This document shows, in pieces, positions 24,207 through 48,503 of a stretch of DNA of 64,000 bases (position 1 is its first letter; each line of letters opens with the position of its first letter). The DNA is from Candidatus Argoarchaeum ethanivorans (GTDB taxonomy: Archaea > Halobacteriota > Methanosarcinia > Methanosarcinales > EX4572-44), in assembly GCA_004193545.1 (NCBI GenBank), contig RPGO01000030.1:4790-68789 (forward strand). Reading direction: 5' to 3'. The notes beneath the pieces were generated by a model. The model saw only the letters and a list, made by a program, of their open reading frames with translations, was not told where the DNA came from and searched no databases. The position numbers and the translations under genes are program-made.

Positions 24207-24650
24207 ATGATAAAGAATTTTTTGATTGCAACCACAGCAAGTGTTGTTGCTGGAGGTATTATCTATAGCCTGGTTGTTTTACTTGTTAATTATTTTGCGC
24301 CAATTGTTGCTGTAATCGCCGGGTTTGTTAGTGGAATAGGGCTTGTGGTTTTGAGCAGATGCAATAAAGAGAATAACAAGGATATTTCAGCAGTTGGTCT
24401 ATGCTATTTTGGAGTGGTTGCTGTAATGTCGCTTTTTACTGGATATCTGCTTATTTACTATTTTAAACCAGTGATTATTCATGGTATTATGTGTCATCCA
24501 AAAAACTTCATCGCATTTCCACAGTTTATTGTAAACACGCTTAAAATCCCAGATATTTTAAGCACAATATTCGGGGGCATTGCAGCATCAGCACTATCAC
24601 ATAAAATAAGAGCGATTTATGAATATTTTCGCCGTTCTTCGCCTGTATGA
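24207..24650 (+). CDS. Membrane protein
   Basis: About 4 hydrophobic segments. Confidence 0.6.
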   Translation: MIKNFLIATTASVVAGGIIYSLVVLLVNYFAPIVAVIAGFVSGIGLVVLSRCNKENNKDISAVGLCYFGVVAVMSLFTGYLLIYYFKPVIIHGIMCHPKNFIAFPQFIVNTLKIPDILSTIFGGIAASALSHKIRAIYEYFRRSSPV

Positions 24651-25384: not shown

Positions 25385-25790
25385 TGAAGAACTCCATGCT
25401 ATTATTATATAATTGAGAATCTGATTTGCCTATTATGTAATGTGCAGACTGGTTTAATCCACTTATACCAGTATAGAGTGTAATATCACCAGTTGTTTCA
25501 TTATAATTTGAGTGACAATTGGTACAATAAATCTTCTTGGTAAGATTGTGTACCATATTAACCTGTGGAGTTGTGTTTGGATTGTATCCATGACATAAAC
25601 AATTCACATCACTATGCACACCAGCACTAACATTTGTTACTGATGCGGGATGGCACTTGTTGCAAAACTTCCATGGGTCAGTCTCATTTTTATAGCTGTA
25701 TAATTCATGGCTGTTGGAAAACATCGCACCGGCTATGCCTATAATTAACATGACCACAATTACAGCTATAATTACTTTTTTTAACCTCAT
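25374..25790 (-). CDS. Small secreted triheme cytochrome c (truncated ECN-like paralogue)
   Basis: Signal peptide then AMFSNSHELY; CNKCH, CLCH, CTNCH. Confidence 0.75.
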   Translation of the reverse strand: MRLKKVIIAVIVVMLIIGIAGAMFSNSHELYSYKNETDPWKFCNKCHPASVTNVSAGVHSDVNCLCHGYNPNTTPQVNMVHNLTKKIYCTNCHSNYNETTGDITLYTGISGLNQSAHYIIGKSDSQLYNNSMEFFNET

Positions 25791-31700: not shown

Positions 31701-33494
31701 GCCGCCATCGCCACGGTTCTTTGACACATTATTATGTGTGATGTCGTCATGCCCGGCTCCGTCCAAACAGATACCTCCCTTGGTGTTGTTTGTGATGTTG
31801 TTGTAATTGACATGATTGTAACTGCTCGATCCTTCGGAATGAACTCCATAATTGTTGTTATTCAGAATATCGCTGTCGTTTATGATGTTGTTGCTCGAAC
31901 CAGCAAGATAAAACCCCTGTTTTGTGTTATTTTCAATGATTACGGATGTGATGTTATTCCAACTCGTCGATTCGAGATTGATGCCGTACACAGTGTTGTT
32001 CTCAATCGTGCTGCTCCTGATGCTCACATTCGATGAAGACCCGATGATCCGGATGCCATCTCCGTTATGTATCGTGCAGCCAGTAAACCACAGATCGCTG
32101 CAATCAACGATTGTGACATGCCCGATGTCGGCATCAGTGATCGTAACATTACTATCTGTGCAATTGTAGTACACCCGCCCCCCGTTCACTTCGTTTGTTG
32201 TGTCGATGTCCTGATCATAGTTCCCTTTAACATAGAGGTTGTAGTCTGTGCTGTTGATTATATCGTTGGATTTAAGGATGCTGCTATGGGATGAGGTGAT
32301 ATTTATACCATATTCGCTGCTGTCTGTGATTGTATTGCCTGTCAATGTGTTGTTTGTTGAGGATTTGAGGTTCATCCCATCCCTATTGCAGGCAAGGTCG
32401 TTAGAAAGCAGAGTGCTGTTTTCTGAACTCTGCATAAAAATTCCATAATCTCCGCTGTCTGTGACGTTATTCTCTGAAATGTTGCAGTAGTTTGAGTTTT
32501 GGATGTAAATGCCGTGATCTATGACACTGTTGATGGTGCTGTTGATAACGTTTATGTTGTTGGATGAATATGCATGGATGCCATGCTTATTATTGCCTCC
32601 TGCAATGCTGAAATCTCGGAGCGTGTTGTTGAAGGTTGATTCGAGGTGCACGGCATCGTTGGTTGTGATAGAGTACGACCCTCGCGTGATGCTGATATTA
32701 TTTAATGTGTTGTTGTTTGAATTCTGGATGTAAATACCGTGATAGTAGCTGCTCTTTTCTGCGATGGTGATGCTTTCGAGGGTGTTGTCGTTCGAGTCAT
32801 GTATGTGGATACCATGCCAGTACCGGACTCTATAGTTATAACTGTGCGATTTGGTGTGCCCCGCCTCTATTGTGCAGTCTCTGATGCTTGCGTTGCTTGC
32901 AGAATGGAGATAGATTCCATGTGTGGTGGTGGTGACATAAACATAATTCAGTCCATCCCCATGTCTGAATGTGCAGTTGTATATACTGACACTCTCGTTT
33001 GTCTCGATACTGAATCCATTGTTGTGTACACAGCATTCGATAGTAGTGTTCGTGACATTGCCCCGGCTTCCGCTTTCGTATATCCAGCCGTAGTAGTCTG
33101 ATGTACTGGTATCCTTATGGGTGATCTCTGAACCATTGATGTTCATCACGCCGCCATTGTGTACGGTGATCGAATACTTGATGGAAGATGTGCTATCCAT
33201 CTTCACAGTCGCATTCTCAATCTCCAGCACAGCGCCGCCATTCACGATAATGTCCCCTGCCACGTTGCTTACGTTGTTGCTAAGATTTGTACTCCACTGA
33301 GAATCATTTGTAGTGGTTACGATGATCTCGCCGTAGTCAACAGCCCCGGCGATTCCGCAGAAGATTATGAGTAAAAAAAAGATAGAAGCACAGCTCATAA
33401 AACGCGTCCTACATGTTCTACCATCCTGCCATATCCCGGTTATCTGGTGTCGGAACATCATAATTCGTTTCATCAGTACGTGTTGGAAATTCAC
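25797..33494 (-). CDS. Giant secreted multiheme cytochrome c with N-terminal right-handed beta-helix (NosD/PbH1-like) repeats
   Basis: Hydrophobic leader; ~1000 aa of GI.L..S.N..I..N.I repeats; 32 CxxCH plus CX9CH, 2x CX3CH and CX4CH (hand count); no C-terminal TM. True start probably 33461 or 33398. Confidence 0.92.
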   Translation of the reverse strand: MNFQHVLMKRIMMFRHQITGIWQDGRTCRTRFMSCASIFFLLIIFCGIAGAVDYGEIIVTTTNDSQWSTNLSNNVSNVAGDIIVNGGAVLEIENATVKMDSTSSIKYSITVHNGGVMNINGSEITHKDTSTSDYYGWIYESGSRGNVTNTTIECCVHNNGFSIETNESVSIYNCTFRHGDGLNYVYVTTTTHGIYLHSASNASIRDCTIEAGHTKSHSYNYRVRYWHGIHIHDSNDNTLESITIAEKSSYYHGIYIQNSNNNTLNNISITRGSYSITTNDAVHLESTFNNTLRDFSIAGGNNKHGIHAYSSNNINVINSTINSVIDHGIYIQNSNYCNISENNVTDSGDYGIFMQSSENSTLLSNDLACNRDGMNLKSSTNNTLTGNTITDSSEYGINITSSHSSILKSNDIINSTDYNLYVKGNYDQDIDTTNEVNGGRVYYNCTDSNVTITDADIGHVTIVDCSDLWFTGCTIHNGDGIRIIGSSSNVSIRSSTIENNTVYGINLESTSWNNITSVIIENNTKQGFYLAGSSNNIINDSDILNNNNYGVHSEGSSSYNHVNYNNITNNTKGGICLDGAGHDDITHNNVSKNRGDGGICIGTYYYSSLSTQNTIANNTILSNNNTGIGAYTNYNYLSNNTISSLSGHYALKVSYVRNSFYNHIWRNNTANGEQINYYYDEHDKITELGDNIIENKYLFASNVSNVGKITLIDCTNLTIRNSEFSNNIKSGYGIFLRNSSNNNLTNNAISNNCNGIWLYGSSENSIIDLDTISPSNLYGAHFEEDSDHNNITDSSFAATTSNAMYLSSSDYTTITNTMISSVDRYGLYTIGAHYTNLTNTTITSTSSHSAYLSTSDYITLTDSNLTANNTCVYCSGSNYTKILNTTIRGEDGIYMSESNQGNLTNNTIDATLRGIFLTESRDHNLTANNITNYTITGILLEEHSTNATIIGNDLTRNSSEFDIRLNDSNYCVIVNNESVTANYTFYLTNDTRLATLDTVFNKTEVGYEDTSNLTLMWRIDVLCWDNYHIEFVWANLTVRYGEFSDIGNVTVWGENEIPLSNHGRLSSNDFDYYGPPASGDNWLPIIEYKENVTGKTTYQPMNCTAINRWDKIQGKNITYRNITTEITGPGVTILVDTGYTPNGKCYYCHLDKLKFKDTLHWTNYTSQVFNSLDEPYTPGQCIDCHNENDSIAIPHGNESGKDLLYNQSPQLCYTGKTGGLNCHGASATQERLVQETEFNQTTHHPLGDGKLSCKACHDNHGTEYDSDLLRYYRTNTEGNYNSANYALCFVCHLEEKLVAKMSGETNSHLQNYTNQTNFRDEYYHWGTGFGSTGTPMLQNIHSPQGGQAGWTGHPNYHCYSCHNPHGSDYPATTRPPIKYTYITNLTLPSGADNDGDWVNQTILDHANWSNSTMNQAGGLDNPSCGGCHGFKLPNSFNYRQPFVNYTPAGGAGCLECHDNNASAYNTDPIRPIVNLTAVKLAMHTNLSGAFRTGSDLQGTDKNFTEWLEYRGYTAPQIVNITGDNAICWACHCTNGTPPSPYFHPDRALNPYKCAKCHGPYDGQPPHTQGLVAAIDNHGPTTKGAESILIQTSVGIGGSCDDCHAPSVLPNSSIGELKVWKYTPSKSFITYTGRSTMGDVSHYGLNKTQGLAFGIDNPLFNTTDCLYCHCDSTNGSIWGNATYIADNMYGADTTNVSTCYTYCHVRPDWVGSVEESTLTHFHNESIYAGGGPNCTLCHDVNSKYGVQSLVNATAIKMGIHGNILNNTLVHETYGMDNRSNPCWGCHQSDGTIPEGMGDRNGITDRNEDGIITVDELPYTCEDCHARSEAWSGATGDGHTWESASDPALGLNRLPPLISDHYPNSTYVKTNQHSDNGRCVDCHNNSFNSDNNDTAYKELGHTIFSGVSHYGTTSSLLTPTTKCGYCHDNTTSARANATLYGNATANKHGNFTDEANPEDGCCFCHSHNQTPVDFHNINAVSIVGDPDCLRCHGSNGSAERRRIDEIAYMGAIHAGMNNASVDGDINKSCWVCHFPEGVGMDEHSNRLEPAYNCYDCHNKDNTTLFSNVSDAPEVHNHFKSGTCIEAYWTRPTDLDSCMGCHNQSEMRYTFDENETDPYFTNFSLISHYGDNRTDIVTTYIENDPGAYCGYCHDNLSTVFVEQQSMKKVNHYQIQTCDECHGVGRLHSGTLERVLTDANCTNCHATYGADQQGLKYKINVTAVNFGVHANVNDNMTSVAITVGDANNSKCWGCHVPEGACPEEGHRGTFNNDAYLCYECHNGTYAYQNVSNATAVYNHFKSGINISARTTAETNSESCGYGCHNLTTMKVSGFEGLAGQSSYRQNLSEASHYPRSRPDIATASNLSDCTWCHRNSTNEFIEIFERAGSQNYTENIPHATRTESCTITECHNTGRMHDQNLTIPTISWEQDCDNCHFGLDDSTASKYYVNETMFNYGVHATVNCTECHIHTDQPVNWHPLEEYTWKWCECCHSYQLDLINESDRHNVTGNPLTYMVGGTCVLEIANCTTCHDATTYENAKSNFNSSAEHECRWCHEYPDKGNKTIQSWY

Positions 33495-34268: not shown

Positions 34269-36128
34269 TCATCGTCTTCTCCGCATGAACTTGGATAGGA
34301 GTGTAAGAATAACTCCTGCAAGCAGCAAAGTACATCCTGCCCATAATACATTTAAAAGTGGATACTTGTTAACTATCAGGTCAACATGTCCTGTTTCGAG
34401 TCGACACGGCGGCATTCCTTTCAGGTCAACTATGGTGGCTGACAGCAAGCTGTACTTTACAGCAGGTCTGCTGACAAAGCAAAACTGACGGTGCTTCATG
34501 AATGTTGTAGTCAGGTTGTTTGTTCTGTCGCCTTCAGTTAGTTCAATGTTAGCGGTTTGAATCCAGTCAGATCCAACTTTGTTAACTTTAAAGTCAAGTA
34601 GTTTCACACCAACACTTGCATTTTCTTTGTAAACATTTTCTTCGTTCAAAGCAAAACTGAAGTTGTCAACCGTTGATAGAGACATGCTAACGACAGCTCC
34701 AAGAAGTGCAAAACCAAAACCAAGATGGATGATATTAACCCCGGCTCTATGTATAAATACTGCTCTGCTTTTTATCCTCATATCATGGACTATTCTAAAC
34801 AGAGTATTGCTTGTAATAAAAAAAAATGCTGGAAGAATAAGTATCAAACGGTTATATTGTACCACAAATATAAGTAAGACATTTATGATAAAAAATATTG
34901 CGGTTGTATAGGCAATTATTTGATTTTTCACTTTTCCATACAACATACAGATACCTGTAAGATACACCAGAAGGATCGTTGGAATATATGACATGGCATT
35001 ATAAAATTCAGTAGATACAACAGTCCAGTATCCCATATATTGAAGAACAATACAGATGTTTGGTCCCCAGAACGCTATAAAGGCAAGAACTATCAACAGT
35101 AAAATTGTGAAATAAAATGTGTTGTGTGGGGCAAGAGCTGCACTCAAAGGTGATGATTCTATAGCGCTTTTTTCACCAAACAGTAAAGCAAGTAATGCTG
35201 ATATAATTGCCACAACAAGGATAAAAATAAGAAGCACTAAAAATGTTGGTGTTTCTAAAAATGTGTGAATTGAATTGTATATGCCACTTCGTGCTACGAA
35301 AGTAGTATATATGCAGCCTATGAAACTGTATATGCAAAGAAGCGGAAACAGTCTGCGGTACTCACCGACATTGAACCTAATTTCCGCATGCAGTGCTGCT
35401 GTTATGAGTAGCCATGTTGCAAGTGTTACTGATTGGATTGGATCCCACTGCCAGAAGCCTGTCCACCCAAGAAGCCTGTTTGCCCAGATTCCTCCTGAAA
35501 TCATGCTAATACTTAAAAATAACCAAGATAATCGTAGATAGTCTTTAATACGATGTTTTTTGCCAGTTGTAAGATATGCTGCTGAAACTGCTGCCGGAAT
35601 CAGTGCAAAGGCGTATGCTGCAAACGCTGTGAAAATATGAATTGGCATCAGTATGTCTATTAGTGCTGGGTTGATGCTGTTTCCGATGGCTGGTATTGAT
35701 GCACCTTCTCCAATAAGTATGGATCTAAATGGATTCATTATAATTGTTAGAAAAAGTAAAAAACTGCATGCAGCAAGTGCATAAATGCTATCGTACTGGT
35801 TTGTATTTTGTCTATGTCGCTTGAGATTGATAAATGCGAGCAAAATAGAGAGCCATGCCCATACAAGATACGTTCCATCCTGCCCTACCAGTATGGCTGC
35901 GAGTCGGTAACCAATCGGAAGCACGTCACTATTAAACATCCAGACATAATATGTGCTAAAATCAAGTGAAACGAATGCATAAGATAATGCTAATACAGAT
36001 GCTGTAATGGAGACGGCTGCTATTCCAGCAGACCAGAGACCAATTCTTACTTGTTTGATAATTAAAAATATAACAGCAAGAACTGTGAATATGAAACTGG
36101 TGTATAGAAGCGCTCCACCAATATTCAT
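34269..36128 (-). CDS. ccmF: Cytochrome c biogenesis heme lyase CcmF (system I)
   Basis: Polytopic membrane protein; GQDGT..VW, NPALI...M.IH, WWD-domain WTGFWQWDPIQ, RSG..NSIHTF, IHLG. Confidence 0.9.
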   Translation of the reverse strand: MNIGGALLYTSFIFTVLAVIFLIIKQVRIGLWSAGIAAVSITASVLALSYAFVSLDFSTYYVWMFNSDVLPIGYRLAAILVGQDGTYLVWAWLSILLAFINLKRHRQNTNQYDSIYALAACSFLLFLTIIMNPFRSILIGEGASIPAIGNSINPALIDILMPIHIFTAFAAYAFALIPAAVSAAYLTTGKKHRIKDYLRLSWLFLSISMISGGIWANRLLGWTGFWQWDPIQSVTLATWLLITAALHAEIRFNVGEYRRLFPLLCIYSFIGCIYTTFVARSGIYNSIHTFLETPTFLVLLIFILVVAIISALLALLFGEKSAIESSPLSAALAPHNTFYFTILLLIVLAFIAFWGPNICIVLQYMGYWTVVSTEFYNAMSYIPTILLVYLTGICMLYGKVKNQIIAYTTAIFFIINVLLIFVVQYNRLILILPAFFFITSNTLFRIVHDMRIKSRAVFIHRAGVNIIHLGFGFALLGAVVSMSLSTVDNFSFALNEENVYKENASVGVKLLDFKVNKVGSDWIQTANIELTEGDRTNNLTTTFMKHRQFCFVSRPAVKYSLLSATIVDLKGMPPCRLETGHVDLIVNKYPLLNVLWAGCTLLLAGVILTLLSKFMRRRR

Positions 36129-39100
36129 CTAAATCGTCTCCAGGCAAAATACAACAAACCAAATATGATTATAACAGCAGGTATACAAATTTTTAGTATA
36201 AATTCTGTTATCACAAGTTTCCTCGGCTTTACTACTTTAAGCACTCCGATACCTGTTTTGCTCCAGTGTCCTGCCGAATCCTTTACCCGTACGAAAATAA
36301 AATGCTCTCCATAAGACATCATAGAAGTATTTATCGTATCACCGACAACTGCCGATGATTCGCCATTTTCTCCTATTATGTATTTCAGGTGCTTTCCTTT
36401 GCCTTTGATTCCAAGTATGTCAATGAAGTACTCTGCACGAACGATCTTCATCAAAGGCGGAAGCACCACGGTAACTCTGAGAACGCTAACCTCTCCTATA
36501 GCAACTGTATTCGGTTCAAGCGTTACCACCACGCGTGGCAGGAATTCGGTTGCTGCAAGACTGTGGAAGCTGATCGGATCCTCGCCACCGTGACAGATTG
36601 TACAGTTTGGTGCAAAACCGTGTGCCGTACCCTTTGGGGATCTTCCTTCTGTTCCCATATTTGTGGCATTAAATGGTGAGCATCCGCCGTGGTACGTGTG
36701 ACAGTCCTTGCATCCTGTTATATTTCCAGGGGTCCAATCCTTCCAGTCAGGGTTCTGCACAGTACCACGCGAATATGTGTCAAAATGGAATCTGCTTTCA
36801 CCGGTGGCATTATGACAGGAGCTGCATGTTCTAAGCGGCTCGTCTGAGACGTTGCCTATCGTTGCCATGGTTCCACGAGTGATGCCTACTGCTTTTTGTT
36901 GTGTTTCATTGAAAAGATCGATTTCTTCGCCGTGACAGACATAACACGGTCGTAACGCTTCTTCACTGACATTGGCTTCGATGTGCGTAAGATTGTGGTA
37001 TAAATCTGCTTCAGGGTTGTGGCACAGCCCGCATGTTTCAGTTCTGTTTACAATCTCTATCTCTGCAGTCGAGTAATGGGATGCTCCATATTCGGTATGG
37101 CAGTCGATGCACCTGATGCCTTCAAATGGTTGATATTCCCTTCCCTCGTGTTCTTCATGGCATTCAATGCAGTCAAGTGCAAAATTTCTTGCACCAATAA
37201 TGCCTGTTTTACCGACCATGCTTGGTGCATGGAATATGCTCACGCCTTTTGGATCATGGCAAGCTTCGCAACCGGATTTTACTTTTATCCCGCGTCCATG
37301 CCTGAATATTTTTATCTGGGCTTCTGGTTTGTGTGAAAACTCTCCTTCAATGCTGTGGCACTGGAAGCAGTAGCCCATTGTCTGATTACCGCGCACGACT
37401 TCAAGGGATTCATGCAGCGTGGTATTTGTCGCATTGTGGCACATCTCACACGTGTAGTTATAATTTTTCAGGGTGTCTGCACTATCCTCTGGTGCACCTG
37501 GATAATGAGTACGAATGACTGTAAGATTGAGCTCCTCGCAACGTTCTTTGTTCACATGGCAGTCTTTACACTCTCGTGTTATGGTTATTCCGGGCTTATG
37601 GAAATTGGTTAATCCTTCACCGGCATGGCAGCGTGTACAGGTATTGTTTGAATTGTGTTTTATAACCTGCGGGGCACTACCCCACTCCGGTGCATTTGTT
37701 TCGTTGTTGTGGCACACACTGCAATCTGATGTGTTTAACAGGTCTTCTCGTGTTGAATAATGGGACGCTGAAGCTTGTGTGTGCTTGTCTTCCAGTAACA
37801 TATTTGAATGACAATCCCAGCATGCAGAAGTAGTTGAGATTTCAGCACCCTGGTAATGTGTGTAAACCTGCTTTGCCCCAAACTTCGAGTGTCCATGACA
37901 GTGGATACAGGTTTGCGGCGTGCAATTCCCAAAGTATGGTGTCGGGTGCCTGACAGGTTCACCGCTGCTGCCATTGCCATGACATGCCCAGCATGCTTTG
38001 TTTGCATCATCGGTGATGAAACTGAAATAGTCTGCATCTTTGTTCAAACCAGCATGCACACCGCGTTTGAACTGATCAATATCGATTTTAATTGGTGCAA
38101 CTCCATCCCCGGAATGGCAGCTAATGCAGTCAGAGCTGTATCCACCCGGTGTGAGTGTGTACACATGGAATGTTTCAGGTTTCTCCCCAACTGTTATGTA
38201 ACTATCAAGAGGCAGGTATTTCAAAGGAATTCCAGATTGCAGTACCTGTGTTGTTGCACTCAATGTTTTCTGTTTCCCTGCAATAACTCGAATATTACTC
38301 AGTACGATAGAAGGAGCTGCACCGATAAAAACACGGTCAAGTTTTACTCTGATAACATCGATCTTTCGATCAAGCAACCGTTCTTCGTATGTAAAGTAGC
38401 ATCCTTCATTTATTATTACATCATCGACCAGTGTTTCATTCTTGTACAACCGAAGCTTTGCACCGCCTCGTTTAATGTTTACATCTGCAACATAGAGAAT
38501 GTATCCGCATGTAAGATTCAATGATTCTCCGATATCAAGCATGATGGTTTCATTGTCTGTGAGGTTAACAGGCATCCGGGCAAGCGTTACGTTTTCAATA
38601 TCCTTTTTAAGAACGTAGTAATCAGTGCCTTCTGGCGCGTTTGCACGATATTGGCTGTCATGGCACCCCCAGCAAGCCTTGTTTTCTGTTTCACGGTGTA
38701 TGCGTGATGCAAGTATGGTTCCTGACAACTCTGCAACATAACGATCTTTTGCTGTGAATAACCTGTTTACCGTAAGGTTGACAATGGTTGTTTTTCCTGG
38801 TGCAATGCCGCAAACTTCATATTTAAATACATCACCTTTTACAATCAATTCTTCACGCAGTATCTCTTCATCTTTTTCAAATTTAAATATTGCAGCATCA
38901 CGTGTTGTCTCGATCAGTGTAAGTGAATAGTTGTCAACGAGCTTCCATTGCTGGTTTGCTACCAGTGTTTTGTTAATTGTTGTGTAGTGCACGTGGTCTC
39001 CTTGGTCAGGTGCGTTTCCCCAGCCATCAACAATACCAGTATGGCATCTGATGCAGTCTCTTGTCTCAAGAGATTCCTTCTTAAGGTAATGGGATGCTGA

Positions 39101-42100
39101 GATTTCAATGGTTGTGGCATGATGTGCACCCTGGGCATGACATAATGCACATGAAGCATTGGTTGGCACACTGCTTTGATCAGGAATGTGTTTGTAAACA
39201 ATTGGCGTATCAGCAAAACCACTGATGTGGCACTCTTCACAAATTTTCGCCTTGTATTCTTCACCGTGTTTCATGTCCACATCGATTGTTAAGGTAAACT
39301 CTGTATCTCCACTCACATCACATACAATAGCAGTCCAATTTCCCAGTTGTGGTGAACTGATGTTTATCCTTGTTCCTGTATAGTTCGTATCAGGTGCATA
39401 CAGGGTCAGATTAAGTATACTACTTCCATTCCAATCAAGTGTAGCGTTTAGACATGTAATGTTAGATACCATGCTAAAGTTATACGTGTACGATTCTCTA
39501 TTGACAATAATATCTTTAAATACCTGGCGTGGCGTGTGACAATCTACACAAAAAATGTTTGCATGCGCTGATGTTCTAAATTCAGCCCCTTCAAATTCGG
39601 TCTTGTTGCTATGACAAACCAAACATGCTTCATTGTCTTTGCTCATAATTGGAACTTCCAGGCTTTTATCATGGATTCTACCTGAACCATGACAGGATGT
39701 ACAGTTCGTCCCATGTGTAATATCAGCATTACTTGGATCTACAAAAACACAATAAAACTCGCGTCCACCACCTGTGTGACAGTACGAACAGTTGGTTATA
39801 ACCTGATTGTTTTCAACCACCCACATATCAGTTCTCTGTCTACCATAGTGAGATATGTAGTTTTTAGCCCGTGGATATTTTACATTTTCAGTTGGTGGTG
39901 CAATTGTCAATGATTTGTTATGGCATATTGTACAGTTTGAATCTGTTTGTATATCTTCACCATTTGGCTGATGCTCTCTTACCTGCAGCGGCGTCTGGTT
40001 GAGGTATTCACTGTTTAATGGGGTGCCGGTATCATGGCAGTCCTCGCAAGCTGGCAAATCAGTAACACGTTTTGTATGAGATGAGTCAATGAGCTGCTGT
40101 GTATAATTGACATGACAGCCCCAGCAAACACGGCTGATACTGGTATAATTTGTTTGACTGAACTGTCCGGTGATGTTACGATGAATGCTGCCAAAGAATC
40201 CGGTTTTATTAATTATCGGTATACCTGAAGTTACGTTTGCACCACCTTCAAGATGACAATCGGTGCAGTCTCCACCAGCTGCCGCCTCAGGTTCAACATG
40301 CGGATCATTATGACAGAGCATGCAACCAGTATACTCCATTTCATAATAATCTGCCACGGCATGTCCACCAGGTCGCTGTGTGTGGCAGTCAGTGCAGTTC
40401 CTGATTGAAATATCATGGAATGAATTGTGGCATAATCGGCATGTAACATCATCCATACCATCATCATTAGTATCAGCATGAGTATGTGATAGCCCATTGT
40501 TGTCCCACGAAGGTATCGGTTTGGATGTCTTAGCTCCTGATAAATCTCCACTTGCCCCGGGATTGTGGCATTCACTGCAGTTCCATGGTATATGAATAAT
40601 AGGCTTACTCTGTATGGAATGGTTTGACGTTATTGTGTAATTGAACATTCCCGGTGAACGAGAAAATATCTTCGCAATCCATGTGCCGCTTTTCGGGACA
40701 GCATTAAAACTTGTAGTGTGTAACTTATCACCAACAGGGTAACATATCTTCGAACCTTCTGCAAATACAGCAGTCCCATTAACACTCGGAACTGTATACG
40801 TGCCCTGCCATTTGTCTCCAGTGTTTAAATCCTGCAGACCATTTACATCATCTACTGGTCCAACCAACGTGAGAAATATTTCATACAGTGGGTCGTCCCC
40901 ATCTACCGTCACATTGATTGTTCCGGAGTTAACGTCAATGATGTATGTTTTTGTTACTGCTTCGTATGACATAAACTCTGGTTCATAGTCTCCGATTGTG
41001 TCATTTAGTGTGGTTACTCCATCGAATTGCGGATAAATCAAGCCGTGTCCTTCACTTTTATAATAAATTCCATGACATGCTTCACATGATACATTGTAGT
41101 GTACTCCACTTCGACCTAAATATGACCCGTTTAATGAATGCGGCACTGCAATGTCGTACGTATCTTTTCCGCTTTGACTGTGAATGAAACTTGTGTGGCA
41201 CTGTGTGCAGTCTGCATCTGTCACGTGCGATGGAATGTTAAACTTGGTCTGTGGAATTTTCCTCCCAACAGAACTTTTGCGATACAACTGCACGTTGGTG
41301 TTTGAATTATTAAAAATGGTCACCCAACCACTTTCTCCATAAATAAATCCACCTTCATGGCCATACTTGATGTCATGCAGATGAATTGGTGTTGCACGAA
41401 GGAACTGCGATGAATAAGTGCTGTGGCACATTGTAAGGCAGCTACCTTTTATGTTAGAGGTGATGTTGTCCGGGTGCATTGCAGTAACCGGATTTCTCAC
41501 TGATAAATCGCTCTGTGGACTCCACGAATCATGGCATCCTCTTGCTTGACATCCCCATAAAGTGGTGTTGAAACTGGTGGATGCTGACAAATCCTCTGAA
41601 CCTATTGTGGTGCTGAACTCAATTGTGTATCTGCCGGCATAAGCATCATTCGGGTACGTGAATGTTCCATAATATATCTGGTGAATATAGTTTTCACTAA
41701 GCTCTATTGTTTCTGATTTTGTTGAGAAGTGATCGCCTGCATAATCATAATGCGGATAGTAAATTGTTGCTGTTAGTTTAGGAGCTCTGGTCTCTGCACC
41801 ATTACTAAAAATAATATTACCGTCTGATGTCTCAACTGTTATATCGTCGATCCACCATTCACCATTGTTATTATTATTATTTGAAATGAAATGAAATGCT
41901 ACAAATACTTTCTGTCCGCTATATTGTGTTAAATTGATTGATTCCTGTGTCCATCCGCTGCTGTTGCCTGAATATTCTGCAAGTGTATCCCATGTAGCCC
42001 CCATGTCTACCGATACTTTAACAAAGCCTCCGCTGTCCATCATCCTGTACTGATTCCAGAATGTCAGGTTAATCGTCTGGTCTGAAGATGTTTCTGCCCC

Positions 42101-42562
42101 GATAAACATTCGCTTGAACCAGTTGAATATTTTTGTTGACAAGCTTGTGGTTTCCGGATAACCGGTCAGGTCTATATCCTGCCATGGTGCACCAGTGGTA
42201 TCATAGTTATCAAGATAGTGCCAGCTGTGTGTGCCTTTCTCAGCGTTCCAGCTGTACCCACCGCTTTTTTTTGTTGTACTATCTCTTATCCATGATTGTG
42301 GTGAAAGGCCGCTTACTGGTGTAGTGTTTTCCATAATACTTACTAATACCAGATTTTTCTGCTGCATTCCAATTTCAGTATCCCACCAGTTCCAGCCAGT
42401 GGTATCACCATTTGAGAGATATCCAAGTTGATAAGGTGTCTGCCCGTAGCCAAGTGTCACTGTATACGTTTCCGCCTTAACAATAACTGTACAAGCACTG
42501 AACACTAAAACAAGAAAACTGATGATTAATAATAGTGTTCGTCCAGTGCAAGCGTTTTTCAT
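36125..42562 (-). CDS. Giant membrane-anchored multiheme cytochrome c with S-layer (DUF1608-like) and beta-sandwich domains
   Basis: Signal peptide; 35 CxxCH plus CX4CH and CX3CH (hand count); Methanosarcinales S-layer-like segments at ~38290-38985 (GESLNL..GYIL...LRLYKNETLVDD.II.EG.YFTYE); C-terminal TM followed by RRFR. Confidence 0.92.
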   Translation of the reverse strand: MKNACTGRTLLLIISFLVLVFSACTVIVKAETYTVTLGYGQTPYQLGYLSNGDTTGWNWWDTEIGMQQKNLVLVSIMENTTPVSGLSPQSWIRDSTTKKSGGYSWNAEKGTHSWHYLDNYDTTGAPWQDIDLTGYPETTSLSTKIFNWFKRMFIGAETSSDQTINLTFWNQYRMMDSGGFVKVSVDMGATWDTLAEYSGNSSGWTQESINLTQYSGQKVFVAFHFISNNNNNNGEWWIDDITVETSDGNIIFSNGAETRAPKLTATIYYPHYDYAGDHFSTKSETIELSENYIHQIYYGTFTYPNDAYAGRYTIEFSTTIGSEDLSASTSFNTTLWGCQARGCHDSWSPQSDLSVRNPVTAMHPDNITSNIKGSCLTMCHSTYSSQFLRATPIHLHDIKYGHEGGFIYGESGWVTIFNNSNTNVQLYRKSSVGRKIPQTKFNIPSHVTDADCTQCHTSFIHSQSGKDTYDIAVPHSLNGSYLGRSGVHYNVSCEACHGIYYKSEGHGLIYPQFDGVTTLNDTIGDYEPEFMSYEAVTKTYIIDVNSGTINVTVDGDDPLYEIFLTLVGPVDDVNGLQDLNTGDKWQGTYTVPSVNGTAVFAEGSKICYPVGDKLHTTSFNAVPKSGTWIAKIFSRSPGMFNYTITSNHSIQSKPIIHIPWNCSECHNPGASGDLSGAKTSKPIPSWDNNGLSHTHADTNDDGMDDVTCRLCHNSFHDISIRNCTDCHTQRPGGHAVADYYEMEYTGCMLCHNDPHVEPEAAAGGDCTDCHLEGGANVTSGIPIINKTGFFGSIHRNITGQFSQTNYTSISRVCWGCHVNYTQQLIDSSHTKRVTDLPACEDCHDTGTPLNSEYLNQTPLQVREHQPNGEDIQTDSNCTICHNKSLTIAPPTENVKYPRAKNYISHYGRQRTDMWVVENNQVITNCSYCHTGGGREFYCVFVDPSNADITHGTNCTSCHGSGRIHDKSLEVPIMSKDNEACLVCHSNKTEFEGAEFRTSAHANIFCVDCHTPRQVFKDIIVNRESYTYNFSMVSNITCLNATLDWNGSSILNLTLYAPDTNYTGTRINISSPQLGNWTAIVCDVSGDTEFTLTIDVDMKHGEEYKAKICEECHISGFADTPIVYKHIPDQSSVPTNASCALCHAQGAHHATTIEISASHYLKKESLETRDCIRCHTGIVDGWGNAPDQGDHVHYTTINKTLVANQQWKLVDNYSLTLIETTRDAAIFKFEKDEEILREELIVKGDVFKYEVCGIAPGKTTIVNLTVNRLFTAKDRYVAELSGTILASRIHRETENKACWGCHDSQYRANAPEGTDYYVLKKDIENVTLARMPVNLTDNETIMLDIGESLNLTCGYILYVADVNIKRGGAKLRLYKNETLVDDVIINEGCYFTYEERLLDRKIDVIRVKLDRVFIGAAPSIVLSNIRVIAGKQKTLSATTQVLQSGIPLKYLPLDSYITVGEKPETFHVYTLTPGGYSSDCISCHSGDGVAPIKIDIDQFKRGVHAGLNKDADYFSFITDDANKACWACHGNGSSGEPVRHPTPYFGNCTPQTCIHCHGHSKFGAKQVYTHYQGAEISTTSACWDCHSNMLLEDKHTQASASHYSTREDLLNTSDCSVCHNNETNAPEWGSAPQVIKHNSNNTCTRCHAGEGLTNFHKPGITITRECKDCHVNKERCEELNLTVIRTHYPGAPEDSADTLKNYNYTCEMCHNATNTTLHESLEVVRGNQTMGYCFQCHSIEGEFSHKPEAQIKIFRHGRGIKVKSGCEACHDPKGVSIFHAPSMVGKTGIIGARNFALDCIECHEEHEGREYQPFEGIRCIDCHTEYGASHYSTAEIEIVNRTETCGLCHNPEADLYHNLTHIEANVSEEALRPCYVCHGEEIDLFNETQQKAVGITRGTMATIGNVSDEPLRTCSSCHNATGESRFHFDTYSRGTVQNPDWKDWTPGNITGCKDCHTYHGGCSPFNATNMGTEGRSPKGTAHGFAPNCTICHGGEDPISFHSLAATEFLPRVVVTLEPNTVAIGEVSVLRVTVVLPPLMKIVRAEYFIDILGIKGKGKHLKYIIGENGESSAVVGDTINTSMMSYGEHFIFVRVKDSAGHWSKTGIGVLKVVKPRKLVITEFILKICIPAVIIIFGLLYFAWRRFR

Positions 42563-43617
42563 CTTTTCCCACGTCTCAATTTGCTACCTACAATGTACGA
42601 TGCGACAAGCAAAATACCTGTTAGTACCAGATAGTCAGGTGAATATGCAGGCATCCATTTTAGATTGTATTTTATATTAATCATTTGTAAGACTAATAAT
42701 AATCCAAAAACGAGTGAACTTATAATTAAAGATGTCGAAATTGAGTGACGCTTTCGAGTAAACTTTTCTTTTAGTATCGTCAGGTGTGCTATTCCTTTAT
42801 TTTCTTTTGGAATTTTATTTGTCAGTTTATTTAAATCAAATGGTAAGCATCCCTCGATAATATACTTGCTCCATGTAAAATATGCAGTTGCATACACTAC
42901 AAGCCCAAGGGTCATGCTGCCTATGAGTGTTCCGCCCCCATAGACTACCTCAAATAGAATCGTTGTGATTGGGATAGTCAGTATCGGGATAAATGCCCAA
43001 ACCCATGCAGATGACCGCTGCCAGAGGTTGTAATCGTATGTGATTTCAAGCCACCAGACGATGTACAGCATTGTTATCAAGTACGGTGTGTAAGCACGTG
43101 TAAAACTCAAAAGGAATAAAAATACTGCAAGAGTGGCATTGATTAACAAAACCAATCGAAGAAAACGCGATACTTCCGAAGCAATATCAATGCCGTAGGC
43201 TGATCCGTCCCCTTGAATTGTGAGAGTTACAGAACGCTTTCCGAGTCGATCGATATTGGTATTCATACTGTTCATCCGCTCTTCAATTTTATCAATCATC
43301 ACCTGGGTGCCTGCAATTTCTTTGAGGATTGGTTCAAGTCGTGTATAGATTCCATTTTCAAACCCAACATCAATCAGTTGCTCAAGTGCGATTGTTTTTC
43401 TTACAAGATTGATCCCACCACACAATGTAGCCACTCCAAGCAGTATGATTGTTAGATTTATAATAACCTCTCTTTGCTCAAACTCTTCTCCAGACAACAG
43501 ATCAATTACTGGCTGATAGGACAGGTATACAAGGTAAATTCCAGCAATAACTATGCAGATAGCACCAAATTTTCCAAATAGTGAAATACCAGTTTTTCCG
43601 CTCATTTCAATCAACAA
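42559..43617 (-). CDS. Polytopic membrane protein with a coiled-coil segment
   Basis: About 8 hydrophobic segments. Overlaps the downstream MHC start by 4 bp. Confidence 0.75.
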   Translation of the reverse strand: MLIEMSGKTGISLFGKFGAICIVIAGIYLVYLSYQPVIDLLSGEEFEQREVIINLTIILLGVATLCGGINLVRKTIALEQLIDVGFENGIYTRLEPILKEIAGTQVMIDKIEERMNSMNTNIDRLGKRSVTLTIQGDGSAYGIDIASEVSRFLRLVLLINATLAVFLFLLSFTRAYTPYLITMLYIVWWLEITYDYNLWQRSSAWVWAFIPILTIPITTILFEVVYGGGTLIGSMTLGLVVYATAYFTWSKYIIEGCLPFDLNKLTNKIPKENKGIAHLTILKEKFTRKRHSISTSLIISSLVFGLLLVLQMINIKYNLKWMPAYSPDYLVLTGILLVASYIVGSKLRRGKR

Positions 43618-43632: not shown

Positions 43633-44406
43633 TTAGTGTTTGCTGCTTGCAGCTAAGAAAATGTAGAGCAGTATGCAGATTATAAATATTGTAAATCCAA
43701 GTTTTTTGACATTTTTAAGAATCTGGCTTACTCTGTGCATTTCAGACCCATATTTTGTAATCTGTACCTTATCTGAATCAAATAGCAGATATTCACCAAT
43801 ATTCTTAACTATTATTGGTTCACCCTTGAATAATATGGCTTCTCCCTGTATTGTCTCTTTTTTCAGTGTCCAGTCATCAGGAAATGCTACTGCATCACCC
43901 TTTGTTTTGATGACATCCCCTGATACAGAGTGTACCCGATGAATGACCGGCATCCTCGCTTTTTTTGTGTTAAACATGACAATGTCACCCTGCTGTGGGT
44001 TGACATGCAGGTTCTGTATGAGAACTAGGTCCTTTACCTCAAGAGCAGGCGACATGCTGCCTGAAGTTACGATAGCAAGAAATACGTAGTGGTTAAGGAC
44101 GATGTATGCTATAACGATCGTGATTAACAGTGGAATAAGCACCGGTAAAACTCTCTGTCTTTTTGATAACTCCCCATAGTGTCCCATCCTGCTTTCGACA
44201 GATTTTTTCTGATTTTGGTAAGTGATTTTTTTTATTAAAGTACTGATAACATTTGGAAAAAATGTTGAATTTCTTACATGTATATTACGTAAGATTATAA
44301 AAAAGATTAATGTGGCTAAAAACAGGATTAATAAAACTTGATTAATATATAAGAGATAAAAAAATGAAGATAATAATATACCAATCGAATCTTCTACAAA
44401 CGACAT
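43633..44406 (-). CDS. Signal peptidase I, S26 family (Sec11/SipW type)
   Basis: SGSMSP (catalytic Ser), GDIV.F, IHRV (His), KTKGD; TM segments at both ends. Confidence 0.88.
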   Translation of the reverse strand: MSFVEDSIGILLSSFFYLLYINQVLLILFLATLIFFIILRNIHVRNSTFFPNVISTLIKKITYQNQKKSVESRMGHYGELSKRQRVLPVLIPLLITIVIAYIVLNHYVFLAIVTSGSMSPALEVKDLVLIQNLHVNPQQGDIVMFNTKKARMPVIHRVHSVSGDVIKTKGDAVAFPDDWTLKKETIQGEAILFKGEPIIVKNIGEYLLFDSDKVQITKYGSEMHRVSQILKNVKKLGFTIFIICILLYIFLAASSKH

Positions 44407-44477
44407 GGTTTATTATATAAAAATATCAAATATTTAAAAATTAAAAAAATTAAAGATGATCAATATCAATGATCATC

Positions 44478-45149
44478 TTAATCCATCACAAGTGTTGTAT
44501 TCGTGGTGACACCAATATCCCATGTCTCAGTCGTTGTGTTTATACTTGCATTGATATCAAGCCCGCCGAACTTGTACCATGTGATATTGATATTGGTCAT
44601 AGTATGGCATCCGATACATGCGGAACTGTCGGTTGCAGCACCTTCGGATTGATTGTAGAAATCACTGTGTGCAGAACTAGAACTTCTTAACTGTACTGTT
44701 GCATTGTAATGACAGTCTCCACAATCTACCTTTATTGCGGCATGGGGGGTGGCCTGACTTCGCCATGTTCCATTGAAAGCAGTTGAGTAACTTGTATTGC
44801 TCAAACCTTCTTGTGTGAAATCCTCAAAGTTATAGCCTGTCAACGATGTAATATTCAAGCCATAATCAGTCTCAAGTATTGTTTCATTAATCTGATGACA
44901 GATACTGCACCCTGAAGTGCCTGAGTAATTCACAGCAAAAGTTGCATGTGCACCACCACGAGCTAAATTTGCATTCCACTCATCAACCTCTGGCTGATGA
45001 CACTTTGCACATAAATCTACCATATCATCCGGGTTCTTAACACTATACCATGTGTGCTGCCCTACAAACATTGACATGGTTGAAGGCAGTACAAAAAGTC
45101 CAATAGCTAAAATGCTACAAGACAACAACAATATATATTTACCTTTCAT
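44478..45149 (-). CDS. Secreted tetraheme cytochrome c, candidate extracellular cytochrome nanowire (ECN) major subunit
   Basis: Signal peptide then SMFVGQHTWY; CAKCH, CSICH, CGDCH, CIGCH; beta-rich C-tail; strong GAGGTGA RBS. ECN resemblance is from recall, not from a search. Confidence 0.8.
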   Translation of the reverse strand: MKGKYILLLSCSILAIGLFVLPSTMSMFVGQHTWYSVKNPDDMVDLCAKCHQPEVDEWNANLARGGAHATFAVNYSGTSGCSICHQINETILETDYGLNITSLTGYNFEDFTQEGLSNTSYSTAFNGTWRSQATPHAAIKVDCGDCHYNATVQLRSSSSAHSDFYNQSEGAATDSSACIGCHTMTNINITWYKFGGLDINASINTTTETWDIGVTTNTTLVMD

Positions 45150-45407: not shown

Positions 45408-46965
45408 GGGGTTGTAAACTCTCCGGGTGTTGGCGCTCATTATAGAAAGATCCATGCTGAAACACCTGTATCTTCTTTTTAAATCTGATTTTGTCTTATA
45501 ATTCAAGTTTCTATCCAAAAATAAATCGAAAAATCTATGCATAAGGAAAACAGAGTATGTACAATGAGTGTTACAATGTTATCTACTTTGAAAACAAACA
45601 TCTCGCAGATTCAGCTTCTCTTGTCTGATTTTTCCAACGGTACCCCGGAACCATAGAAGATCATAGCAGAGCGATTTTCGATGGATAATAAACCGTATCA
45701 TGTGAACAAGGGATTGATTCTCCTGGCAGATAACCATTTTGAACTTGTTAACCCAATTTGTCCTATTTGTGGTTCTTATTGTGTGATTCGGCAGGAATTT
45801 CAGGAGCGAAATCCGATACTGGGTGAGTTTGGATCTTGTGAGATTTATATGAGGCGTTATTTGTGTAAAAAATGCCACAGAAAGTTTGTAACACAGTTAA
45901 ACCTGGTTGTATAGCCGAATCATCGATATGCATCGATATTCAAGGAGAAAATAGATGGTTTAGTCAAAACAGGCTACCGTTCCTTGCGAAAACTGGGTGA
46001 GGATCTCCATACGTTCTTCGGAATCTCGCCCTCTCACCAATCGATAACCTTCACACCAATCGATAAAGAACTGGCTAAGAATCGGGGATGAAAAGAGAAT
46101 CAATAACCATATACCAGATTATTCTGGATATTACTGCTATGATGAGCAATATATCAAGATTGATGGTAGAAAAAGCTATCGTCTGACATTATTTGACGCT
46201 TTATTGAATATCCCAATCGCTGAAGAGATAGCCAAGAAAATAGATTACACGACAGTTTACAACTTTTTAAAATCAGTACTTGCAGATAAACCGCTTATTA
46301 CAATAACAACGGATCACAAGAGGATGTACAATAGCATAATCGAGAAACTGGGAGCTTTACATCAATTATGCATATTCCACCTATTCAAAATGATAGGAAA
46401 GGAAATGATAGGAGAAGATGTATACGACCGTTTAAAGTCCAAAACTATCCCATATCGAGATAAAATCAAATTATGCATATACTTCACTAAAATCAAGGAA
46501 ATATTCAGGACATACGACCTTAATGTTGCAATAAATAGATTAAATAAATTATTAGATAAATATGACGATATTTCACGCGTTTTACAAAAGTGGATACGAA
46601 AAAAGATCATCCCTGACTTTGAACGACTTAATATCTTCATGAGAGATGGGTCAATCCCCAAAACGAATAATCAAGTTGAAAATTACTACCGACAGACCGA
46701 TCCCAACCAAATAAAAAGGAAATACAAGACATATCAAGGAATACTCGCCTTTCTAACAAGAAAAATGGAATACTGGACATCAAAACATGGGAAGATACAA
46801 CACCCAACAAGTTGACAGCCCAAAATTACTACCGACAGACCGATCCCAACCAAATAAAAAGGAAATACAAGACATATCAAGGAATACTCGCCTTTCTAAC
46901 AAGAAAAATGGAATACTGGACATCAAAACATGGGAAGATACAACACCCGGAGAGTTTACAGCCCC
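45408..46965 (+). mobile_element. Degraded DDE IS (ISNCY/ISM1-like) with a fragmented transposase
   Basis: TIRs GGGGTTGTAAACTCTCCGGGTGTTG / CAACACCCGGAGAGTTTACAGCCCC. Zn-ribbon CPICG..CKKC, YCYDEQY, TTD, HQLCIFH, TNNQVE. Contains a stop, frameshifts and a ~120-bp 3' duplication. Confidence 0.8.
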
Positions 46966-47115: not shown

Positions 47116-48503
47116 TGCTTTGTTGAATAAATAGTCCCTTTTTGACTCTCCTAAGAATTTTCTTCTATCCTACGCCCAATTTAATAGCATGTTATAAAAT
47201 GTAAACTTCATAATAACTTCTTTGAACATACCAGAGTTACTACTCGCTCGTACCGATTCACCAAAGATTCGTTTTACAGAAGAGTAGGTGCCCTCAACTA
47301 CCCATCGCATTCCGTAATCATATTTCTTTTTCCATTCATCGTAGCCAAGTTTCTTTCGTTCTCGTACACATTTCGCCCTATAAGGTGAACCCTTTGCTTT
47401 GGTACTTGCATCTTTTCTCGTTTTGATCCCTGATTCTATGCCCTTTTTATGCAAGAAACTGAAGTTGCCTTTAGTATCGTAGGCCCCATCACCTAAAGCC
47501 CGCTTTATTTTATCATAACCTATGGTTTCTTCAGATACTTCAATTAAATCTTCAAATTTATCCCCGTCACTGGTCTGTTCGTCAGTGACCTCTATAGCAA
47601 CAATTTCCTTTGTGTTTACATTAACCGCTATATGAGCCTTAATCCAACCTCTATGGATTCTCCATTTTTCTCGCATCCATTCTCCTCTGTTTGTAACCTT
47701 TACTCCAGAACTATCTACTGCAATGATAATATCTTCGTCCTTATTCTTTATCGTATCACTAAGCTCCAGCTCCAATTTTTCAATCCGTTTGAATAACGTC
47801 GTATAATCTGCGGCGCTCTAGCTTTGGGATCATTTCGGATAATTTACGACTGAATCATTCCATATGTCGATAAGGCATGGCAAATATAATATGAATAAAT
47901 GCCATCCACAATATGAACTGTTTAGGATACTGGAAGGGTGCTCCACGTTTGTTTTTATTCATTTTTGCTATCTCAAGATCCCAGTTCTCGACGAATTCTA
48001 AAGAAAGATACAATTCACCTCTTTGAACCAATCTTTCATTGTATTCCTTCCAGTTTCTGTTATCTTTGTATTTCTTGCCCCATCTTTTCTTTTCCCATCG
48101 TTTTGACATAGTGCATCATAACTGAATAGTTATTCAGTTATATATTTATATCTGTTAAATGCATACGGGAGCCACATGAAAACTGCTACTCTCATTATTT
48201 TTCATCTGCATAGAAAAGATAAAAAAATTGAAATGAGTAATGCATGCAAATTATATCGGGAATTGTATGGATATAATAATTATTCATTCTATGGAAAGTA
48301 CCGTAGTAGAATTGATGGGTTAATTGACAAAATCAATGGTATTCGAATTGTAAGGAGTGTAGTAATCGTTAGAAATGAAGATGCAAAATCAGTAATGGAT
48401 CTCCTGTTAAAATACCAAGCCGAAATAATCACAAAAAAAGTGATTTTAGATCAGAATGATATTAGACAACTGCGAATCGACTAAAGAATTATTCAACACA
48501 GCA
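47116..48503 (-). mobile_element. IS5-family (IS903-like) element with a frameshifted transposase and a divergent passenger ORF
   Basis: TIRs TGCTTTGTTGAATAA / TTATTCAACACAGCA; TSD GCAATATC (47108-47115, 48504-48511). ORFs 47855-48109 (NWKEYN..L.QRG) and 47170-47775 (VDSSG, W.K.H, GDGAYD, YGMRWVVE). Confidence 0.9.
48176..48484 (+). CDS. Small basic protein carried inside the IS5 element
   Basis: Intact 102-aa ORF that ends just before the right TIR. Confidence 0.7.
   Translation: MKTATLIIFHLHRKDKKIEMSNACKLYRELYGYNNYSFYGKYRSRIDGLIDKINGIRIVRSVVIVRNEDAKSVMDLLLKYQAEIITKKVILDQNDIRQLRID

Follow-up and report, generated by a model that had tools for sequence, protein, structure and literature searches.

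A gene for a small multiheme cytochrome that is followed directly by a gene for a signal peptidase raises the question of whether some archaeal cytochromes are matured and assembled by machinery of their own. Such a pair occurs in Candidatus Argoarchaeum ethanivorans, in a stretch of 64,000 nucleotides of assembly GCA_004193545.1 (contig RPGO01000030.1, positions 4,790 to 68,789), the whole of which is here called the window. ECN223 (44478–45149, minus strand, 223 aa) is a tetraheme c-type cytochrome with an apparent Sec-type leader and a putative subunit of an extracellular cytochrome nanowire (ECN). It is followed on the same strand by S26_257 (43633–44406, 257 aa), a paralogue of the archaeal or endoplasmic reticulum (ER)-type signal peptidase I, and by TM352 (42559–43617, 352 aa), a protein that spans the membrane several times and belongs to no family known so far. 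An initial annotation had compared ECN223 with the nanowire protein AvECN and proposed that the peptidase cuts before MF and that the N-terminal histidine freed in this way ligates a heme. We find that the gene module formed by these three families is real and well supported, and we lean, by a small measure, towards the view that all three work as one functional unit, in which the S26 paralogue, probably with TM352, is dedicated to the maturation or assembly of cytochromes that bear a particular N-terminal motif.

In Archaeoglobus veneficus the extracellular cytochrome nanowire is built from AvECN, reportedly described by Baquero et al. in 2023 (PDB 8E5G), and its likeness to ECN223, suggested in the initial annotation, proved to be true sequence homology. 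The PDB chain 8e5g_A was the sole significant match of ECN223 in a phmmer search of the PDB (E = 8.9e-14), and it was likewise the sole significant PDB match of profile A1, made from 19 sequences (E = 3.1e-22). The entry is identified as AvECN in the legend to Figure 2 of PMC12954529, and the genome G113 of family f7 has a gene whose product matches 8e5g_A at every one of its 262 residues. Profile A1 and 8e5g_A align collinearly in three stretches, over heme sites 1 and 2, heme site 3 and heme site 4. The four heme sites of ECN223, all canonical CxxCH (CAKCH at residue 47, CSICH at 81, CGDCH at 143 and CIGCH at 178), align in the same order to those of AvECN, and its four distal histidines (H32, H68, H136 and H161) align to histidines of AvECN. 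The two proteins are similar in size (223 and 262 aa) and both carry an apparent Sec-type leader that ends in nearly the same way, LPSTMS MFVGQH TWY in ECN223 and LPSTTS LFLGQH MWY in AvECN, whereas the alignable stretches are only modestly similar and the middle of the protein is divergent. This sequence evidence places ECN223 in the AvECN family. Its AlphaFold2 model, made from a 19-row alignment, is of low quality (mean pLDDT 50.3, pTM 0.28).

ECN223 contains exactly eight histidines, four within the CxxCH sites and the four distal ones, and each of the eight is conserved in every one of the 19 homologues that were aligned. Because the four histidines outside CxxCH are just the number needed for four bis-His hemes, His32 is very probably a heme ligand. 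A preprint on the known cytochrome wires describes bis-His hemes and 0, 1 or 3 inter-subunit histidines (bioRxiv 10.1101/2023.06.12.544705), and in the accessible part of PMC11936953 the protomers of AvECN are linked through at least one coordination bond between histidine and iron, and the solved cytochrome filaments, AvECN included, are described as homopolymers.

The initial annotation had also pointed to a motif shared by three cytochromes of the window, and the motif is present in all three: SMFVGQHTWY in ECN223, SMFSGQHVFY in par255 (24617–25384, minus strand, 255 aa) and AMFSNSHELY in par138 (25374–25790, minus strand, 138 aa), each time ahead of a CxKCH heme site. In ECN223 the sequence reads LPSTMS MFVGQH TWY, with His32 and then CAKCH at residue 47; in par255 it reads PDIFS MFSGQH VFY, with His32 and CQKCH at residue 40; and in par138, the shortest of the three, it reads IAGA MFSNSH ELY, with His28 and CNKCH at residue 43. 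Common descent, and not chance, accounts for the motif, because the three proteins are homologous: BLASTP matches ECN223 to par255 with E = 1e-9 and to par138 with E = 2e-6, and the family profile matches par138 by hhalign with a probability of 95.9% and E = 6e-9. Par255 matches 8e5g through the N-terminal module alone (E = 1.3e-5), and a direct search of par138 against 8e5g gave no match. The additional blocks H..FY and ACIxCH(T/S)...I.IT were found in both ECN223 and par255, as had been claimed. Of the two proteins previously called tetrahemes, ECN223 deserves the name with its four CxxCH sites; par255 has three CxxCH sites and one Cx4CH site (CDDDWCH, residues 149–155, window 24940–24920) in place of the third canonical one, so that the name fits it only if heme is bound there. 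In par138 there are two CxxCH sites and one CxCH site (CLCH, residues 64–67, window 25599–25588). A whole-genome search of this genome, which is 82% complete, found exactly these three members of the ECN family.

Two side observations concern the same proteins. A contracted CxCH (G-C-F-C-H-Q) occupies heme site 2 in most homologues of ECN223 from anaerobic methanotrophic (ANME) archaea, at a position (columns of about 88–93 of the alignment A1) where ECN223 and AvECN have CxxCH, and the CLCH of par138 aligns with it; a functional CxCH heme site has reportedly been seen in an anammox cytochrome. The three proteins are also rich in N-x-S/T sequons, with 11 in the 223 residues of ECN223, 9 in par255 and 8 in par138, counts that are consistent with a glycosylated extracellular archaeal protein.

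The motif extends through the family. We gathered the open reading frames (ORFs) that match the ECN profile from 41 named loci and from further genomes of the same phylum (loci L006–L082). The pattern (M/L/I/V)(F/L/I/V)xxxH occurs 5–40 aa before the first CxxCH in 108 of these 129 ORFs, one of the 108 being a false match, and the 21 ORFs that lack it are fragments, truncated, or members of a separate subgroup of tetrahemes of about 183 aa. The addition of peptidase neighbourhoods raised the collection to 191 ORFs, 159 of them with the motif and a full leader; these represent 136 distinct segments, which reduce to 66 non-redundant ones at no more than 70% identity. Relative to the predicted cut, the 66 segments have P at position −5 in 54 cases, T at −3 in 47 and S or A at −1 in 61, followed by L or M at +1 in 56, F at +2 in 60, G at +4 in 58, Q at +5 in 53, W at +8 in 52 and Y at +9 in 47, the counts at +1 and +2, as well as the histidine at +6, being partly preset by the pattern that served as the alignment anchor. 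The family motif can thus be written as P(−5) T(−3) S/A(−1) followed by L/M-F-x-G-Q-H-x-W-Y, and with the core of the leader included the conserved module is A..A.G.F.LP.T.S followed by (L/M)F.GQH.WY. In ECN223 the part around the cut (PSTMS and MFVGQHTWY, residues 22–35, window 45045–45086, minus strand) was delimited by these family statistics.

The n-, h- and c-regions of the ECN223 leader and the small residues at −3 and −1 are visible by eye. The signal peptidase cut is predicted between Ser26 and Met27, codon 27 starting at 45071, and throughout the family a cut before M/L-F, after position −1, conforms to the −3/−1 rule. A cut after +3, which would place A, S or G at −1 and L or M at −3, is a possible alternative with a less canonical fit. 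A Sec leader ordinarily requires hydrophobicity alone, and for that reason the pattern in the core of the ECN leader is unusual: A−15, A−12, G−10, F−8 and L−6 (window 45086–45120 in ECN223) are conserved across distant lineages, which suggests recognition inside the membrane. Other leader types were considered. A class III (prepilin-type) leader was rejected, as the aligned N-termini show no conserved G/A cut site ahead of the hydrophobic stretch and, according to the introduction of PMC12337348, the leaders of archaeal cytochrome nanowires are of the Sec type. “LPST” could also be read as sortase-like, which was set aside in favour of the usual helix-breaking proline between the hydrophobic core and the cleavage region.

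The N-terminal module is not limited to tetrahemes, because larger cytochromes of family f7, with 392–457 aa and 6–10 CxxCH sites, carry a degenerate copy of it (TPS LFVSQH or TYS VLLQTH, for example). These larger proteins are encoded on the minus strand at 2979–4352 and 5187–6383 of locus L078 and at 1780–2958 and 3751–5079 of locus L080.

The peptidase gene lies 71 nt past ECN223, and S26_257 matches PF10502 with 41.1 bits (cut-off 22.9), so that the initial description of ECN223 as directly upstream of an S26 peptidase was accurate. The further label “SipW-type” is appropriate in a broad sense, S26_257 scoring 56.9 bits against TIGR02228 (sigpep_I_arch, cut-off 51.85); in the narrow sense it is wrong, with 22.9 bits against the SipW model NF046067, for which the cut-off is 190. 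Ser117 (in SGSM), His156 (in HR), Asp171 (in GDA) and Asp177 are present without exception in the 15 orthologues that were compared; the serine and the histidine are the presumed catalytic residues, as is usual in the S26 family. The protein has additional N-terminal membrane segments and a C-terminal anchor. The housekeeping Sec11 is a different enzyme, encoded by another, canonical Sec11-like gene of the same genome (191 aa, contig C11), and orthologues of that gene (E from 1e-40 to 1e-45) occur once in each of the five complete f7 genomes, beside the ECN-type enzyme; these five genomes have between two and five TIGR02228 matches each. In a maximum-likelihood tree of 30 sequences the ECN-type enzymes, drawn from the source genome and the five f7 genomes, one of which encodes AvECN, fall on one side of a branch with support 95/90 and the housekeeping group is supported with 100/98; since the groups had been preset by similarity and context, the tree speaks for their coherence and is no independent test. 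By its sequence, then, S26_257 belongs to a distinct clade with intact catalytic residues that is separate from the housekeeping Sec11. Four of the five complete f7 genomes (G047, G065, G113 and G210) have one to three additional S26 paralogues of 162–354 aa, which form two well-supported clades distinct from the housekeeping group as well as from the ECN-type enzymes (L141, L143, L144, L146–L148, L150 and L151) and may serve other surface filaments; the complete f7 genome G073 has no such paralogues.

TM352 has no significant Pfam hit (E up to 0.1, with one sub-threshold ArsR match) and no NCBIfam hit; a search of the ESM Atlas gave no usable feature match, and all structural neighbours had TM scores below 0.33. 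The AlphaFold2 model, from 15 rows, is of low confidence (pLDDT 61.9) and all-helical, with eight long hydrophobic helices. An exhaustive profile search found the family in 81 cluster representatives among 1.84 billion, and the protein is single copy. Residues F86, Y91, P96, E100, A102, W188, W189, T193, P211, L213, P216, Y242 and Y246 are invariant. Of ten representatives that were scanned, picked mostly for extra length, three have N-terminal TPR repeats and one has a beta-propeller/Ig region, and no fusion of S26 with TM352 was found among these ten of the 81. The TPR-fused relatives have 587–663 aa and the other is a protein of 1483 aa with a BamB-like beta-propeller and an Ig domain (P0060, P0061, P0062 and P0084). 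The fusions hint that TM352 is scaffold- or chaperone-like rather than an enzyme.

The relationship among the three families was assessed in a sample of 401 genomes of the phylum searched with the ECN profile, TM352 and S26_257. The ECN family was found in 63 genomes and TM352 also in 63, while S26_257 matched at E ≤ 1e-10 in 65 genomes, 59 of which have orthologues, which score at least 89 bits, the next paralogues scoring at most 49. ECN occurs together with TM352 in 60 genomes and with the S26 orthologue in 56, TM352 and S26 occur together in 58, and all three are present in 56, compared with 67 genomes that have at least one of the three and 334 that have none. The mismatched genomes are mostly drafts of 73–95% completeness. 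In family f2 none of the 52 sampled genomes has ECN, TM352 or the S26 orthologue.

The genes are also frequently adjacent. Among the 58 genomes with both S26 and TM352, 36 have the two genes on one contig, always within 2.5 kb of each other. TM352 lies within 6 kb on either side of S26 in 35 of 58 S26 neighbourhoods and an ECN-family ORF in 25 of 58. In 21 of the 58, from families f4, f14, f19 and f31, the S26 and ECN genes overlap or are separated by no more than 113 nt, and more distant links inside the 6-kb range are found in f7 and f10. By family, ECN-linked S26 genes number 16 of 22 in f14, 2 of 2 in both f19 and f31, 1 of 1 in both f4 and f10, 3 of 25 in f7, 0 of 3 in f21, and 0 of 1 in both f3 and f37. 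ECN is followed by S26 in 13 of the 41 named ANME-2, GoM-Arc1 and Methanoperedens loci, and the full collinear order ECN, S26, TM352 appears in 12 of the 41, in ANME-2 and GoM-Arc1; the thirteenth ends at the contig edge after S26. The linkage of peptidase and cytochrome first noticed in the window hence recurs across genomes and families, and the initial annotation's own ground for refutation, a lack of such linkage elsewhere, does not hold. In four of the complete f7 genomes a conserved cytochrome of about 204–214 aa with six hemes is encoded about 2–2.5 kb from the S26–TM352 pair (L077 2478–3092, minus strand; L078 13115–13759, plus; L079 2412–3053, minus; L080 16531–17172, plus).

In the window, ECN223 heads an operon-like block on the minus strand that continues with the S26 paralogue, TM352, a giant multiheme cytochrome (MHC) and a CcmF-like protein. 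S26_257 and TM352 are separated by 15 nt, and the giant cytochrome gene (36125–42562, 2145 aa) overlaps the TM352 stop by 4 nt; its product has S-layer and InhA-like MAM N-terminal domains and a C-terminal anchor, and by these domains is an ANME MHC type B in the nomenclature given in the accessible text of PMC9012536. The gene for the CcmF-like cytochrome c assembly protein (34269–36128, 619 aa; PF01578, 51.1 bits) is immediately 3′ of it. Then follow, also on the minus strand, a giant beta-helix multiheme cytochrome (25797–33494, 2565 aa), by its domains an MHC type C in the same nomenclature, and par138 and par255, the former beginning 6 nt past the giant gene. The leaders of both giant cytochromes lack the motif. 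ECN223 has the strong ribosome-binding site that had been noted, a Shine-Dalgarno-like GAGGTGAT at 45163–45156, read directly on the minus strand and located 6 nt upstream of the ATG. Just past its stop, pattern matching finds a terminator-like hairpin (44453–44479, minus strand) with a 10-bp stem and a 7-nt loop followed by a T-rich run; through attenuated read-through it might yield less peptidase and TM352 than subunit, and the fold of the ECN223/S26 hairpin compared with shuffles is not significant (z-score −1.1).

The order of genes is more compact elsewhere. In six other loci (L007, L009, L019, L023, L025 and L037) the genes follow one another without a break, in the order giant MHC, par138, par255, a lipoprotein-like ORF, ECN223, S26 and TM352, with L007 and L037 cut short ahead of S26 and L009 (3602–8772) serving as the comparator. 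This synteny supports the view that par138, par255 and ECN223 are three distinct conserved components of one cluster. The ECN223 block of the window lies about 19 kb from par138 and par255, beyond the two giant cytochromes and beside two transposase-like ORFs just upstream of ECN223 (46204–46815, plus strand, and 47170–47775, minus strand, the latter with a PF01609 match); the arrangement looks like a rearrangement of the contiguous cluster. A lipoprotein-like ORF of 135 aa in the window (23710–24117, minus strand) may correspond to the syntenic lipoprotein-like ORF of the six loci, to which its N-terminus is similar by eye.

These results lead us to a possible course of events for a module dedicated to the ECN family. 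The ECN precursor would be exported by Sec, and the S26 paralogue would cut it after the Ser or Ala at −1. The new N-terminus would be (L/M)-F-x-G-Q-H, with the invariant histidine at mature position 6 as the distal axial ligand of one bis-His heme, and because the protomers of AvECN are joined by His–Fe bonds, that heme may lie in a neighbouring protomer. The peptidase, and perhaps TM352 as well, would recognize the ECN precursor by its conserved leader and N-terminus. A more elaborate version can be envisaged, in which S26 and TM352 form a dedicated membrane machine that recognizes A..A.G.F.LP.T.S, frees (L/M)F.GQH and passes His6 to the heme of the previous protomer, so that cleavage would be coupled to polymerization in a heme-ligand analogue of donor-strand exchange, with par255 and par138 as initiator or adaptor subunits to the giant surface cytochromes. 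We regard this version, taken as a whole, as rather unlikely.

Several observations weigh against a unit dedicated to the ECN family. The cleavage region follows the ordinary −3/−1 rule, and the housekeeping Sec11 could cut it as well. The sampled genomes are related by kinship, and the co-occurrence counts therefore overstate the signal. Of the 58 S26 neighbourhoods, 33 have no ECN gene within 6 kb, among them 22 of the 25 in f7, and 28 of the 41 named loci show no S26 gene, 9 with less than 1 kb of sequence downstream and 19 with at least 1.6 kb. In the genome that encodes AvECN (G113), the S26–TM352 pair is about 1.57 Mb from the AvECN gene and is not linked to it, as it is to ECN223 in the window; in the other four complete f7 genomes the pair is 0.9–8 kb from tandem ECN paralogues. 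Giant cytochromes are also part of these clusters, and adjacency thus fails to single out the ECN protein as the substrate. It is possible, if on balance unlikely, that S26 strips the signal peptides of many or all multiheme cytochromes, especially the giant MHC-B, that TM352 handles heme, and that the ECN protein is a mere member of the cluster. General maturation of this kind was proposed by Chadwick et al. (2022), in whose accessible text the pair lies directly upstream of CcmF2/MHC-B (PMC9012536). The window has the identical layout, with TM352 followed by the 2145-aa S-layer cytochrome and the CcmF-like gene, and giant cytochromes lie within a few kilobases of the S26–TM352 pair in four of the five complete f7 genomes. 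The same source, as far as its available text goes, describes the pair as more widely distributed than CcmF2/MHC-B, and in our sample the pair tracks the ECN family closely (56 genomes with all three against 67 with at least one), and in 21 of 58 neighbourhoods the peptidase gene and an ECN-family ORF are immediate neighbours. The giant cytochromes of the window, moreover, have leaders without the motif, TM352 has no significant Pfam match and no NCBIfam match, heme-handling families included, and the TPR and beta-propeller fusions of its relatives suggest a scaffold role.

The remaining explanations concern what ECN223 and its paralogues would do once processed. In a pilus-like system, ECN223 would be the major subunit, and par255 and par138 would attach the wire to the giant beta-helix cytochrome in the role of minor, adaptor or terminator subunits. 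Three separate orthologue groups are kept in one syntenic cluster in the six other loci, par138 begins next to the giant cytochrome gene, all three proteins keep the N-terminal module, and an archaeal precedent exists in the Tafi pilus locus, which according to the available text of PMC12337348 encodes a signal peptidase of its own alongside major and minor pilins. The solved cytochrome filaments are nevertheless described as homopolymers (PMC11936953, in its accessible part), and the two to five tandem paralogues with four to six hemes that occur elsewhere fit equally well with alternative wires or soluble carriers. The division into major, minor and terminator subunits put forward in the initial annotation found no support beyond conserved synteny, and with AvECN itself described as a homopolymer we consider the pilus-like system improbable. 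Less probable still, to the point where we give it little credence, is that ECN223 forms no filament here and, as a soluble or surface-layer protein, carries electrons between membrane and S-layer cytochromes, its N-terminus serving solely for ligation of heme 1 and folding. Chadwick et al., in the accessible text, regard small multiheme cytochromes as intermediates between membrane and S-layer (PMC9012536), and the ECN homologue of ‘Ca. M. vercellensis’ was abundant in the medium, where no ECN filament was resolved, in the available text of PMC13748539; against this stand the full-length collinear homology of ECN223 to a filament-former, with all four distal histidines conserved, and the conservation of the hydrophobic core of the signal peptide (A−15, A−12, G−10 and F−8), which would be superfluous for simple heme ligation.

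Parts of the module have been described before. Upstream of S-layer MHC-B and CcmF2 in ANME archaea, Ferroglobus and Geoglobus, the accessible text of Chadwick et al. (2022; PMC9012536) places genes for a signal peptidase and for a membrane protein without annotation, “8x TMH”; by the same account, a widespread, highly transcribed group of small multiheme cytochromes has the taxon range of the pair. Going by that description, the pair corresponds to S26_257 and TM352, the latter being the “8x TMH” gene, and the restricted taxon range is the same. That text assigns the pair to general cleavage of multiheme cytochrome signals and heme handling, and contains no tie to a small-cytochrome family, an N-terminal motif or nanowires; the structures of archaeal wires came later. 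Wissink et al. (2026; PMC13748539) named an AvECN homologue in the ANME archaeon ‘Ca. M. vercellensis’, and no signal peptidase is linked to it in the available text, where the single mention of a “peptidase” concerns OmcZ. The novelty is therefore below what the initial annotation had assumed, as both the peptidase–membrane protein pair and an ANME homologue of ECN are in print. A link between ECN and a signal peptidase was not found in the searchable literature, outside which lie Baquero et al. (2023) and the supplements of Chadwick et al. (S11, S14, S2/S3), which may overlap with our results, and the same literature proposes no accessory gene for an AvECN-type wire. What appears to be new is the link from ECN to the peptidase and the conserved processing motif.

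SipW processes TasA, and the tapA-sipW-tasA locus of Bacillus subtilis is, like the ECN223 locus, a fibre locus with its own ER/archaeal-type signal peptidase I; S26_257, however, is no orthologue of SipW. A haloarchaeal counterpart is the Tafi locus, which in the available text of PMC12337348 has its own peptidase TafD, a membrane helper TafG and major and minor subunits; TM352, unlike TafG, has no DUF5305 match in a Pfam scan. ECN223 is a heme protein, in contrast to the beta-sandwich pilins of the SipW and Tafi fibres. A protease is also co-encoded with a nanowire gene in the case of OmcZ, in Geobacter and in archaeal OmcZ clusters, where OzpA is required for polymerization according to the accessible text of PMC13748539. 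OzpA is subtilisin-like and removes a C-terminal inhibitory domain, whereas the candidate step at the ECN223 locus is removal of the N-terminal leader by an S26 enzyme.

The subunit, the S26 peptidase and TM352 make up a minimal candidate set that is open to heterologous expression. It rests on an ECN leader and N-terminus far more conserved than an ordinary Sec signal, on the shared phyletic distribution of the three families and on their frequent occurrence in a single operon. The set also has relevance for the way in which methane- and alkane-oxidizing archaea are wired to partner bacteria, minerals or electrodes. If the reading of S26 and TM352 as a dedicated machine is true, it would be the first proposed assembly pathway for “insulated” cytochrome nanowires and would be reconstitutable from three to five genes.

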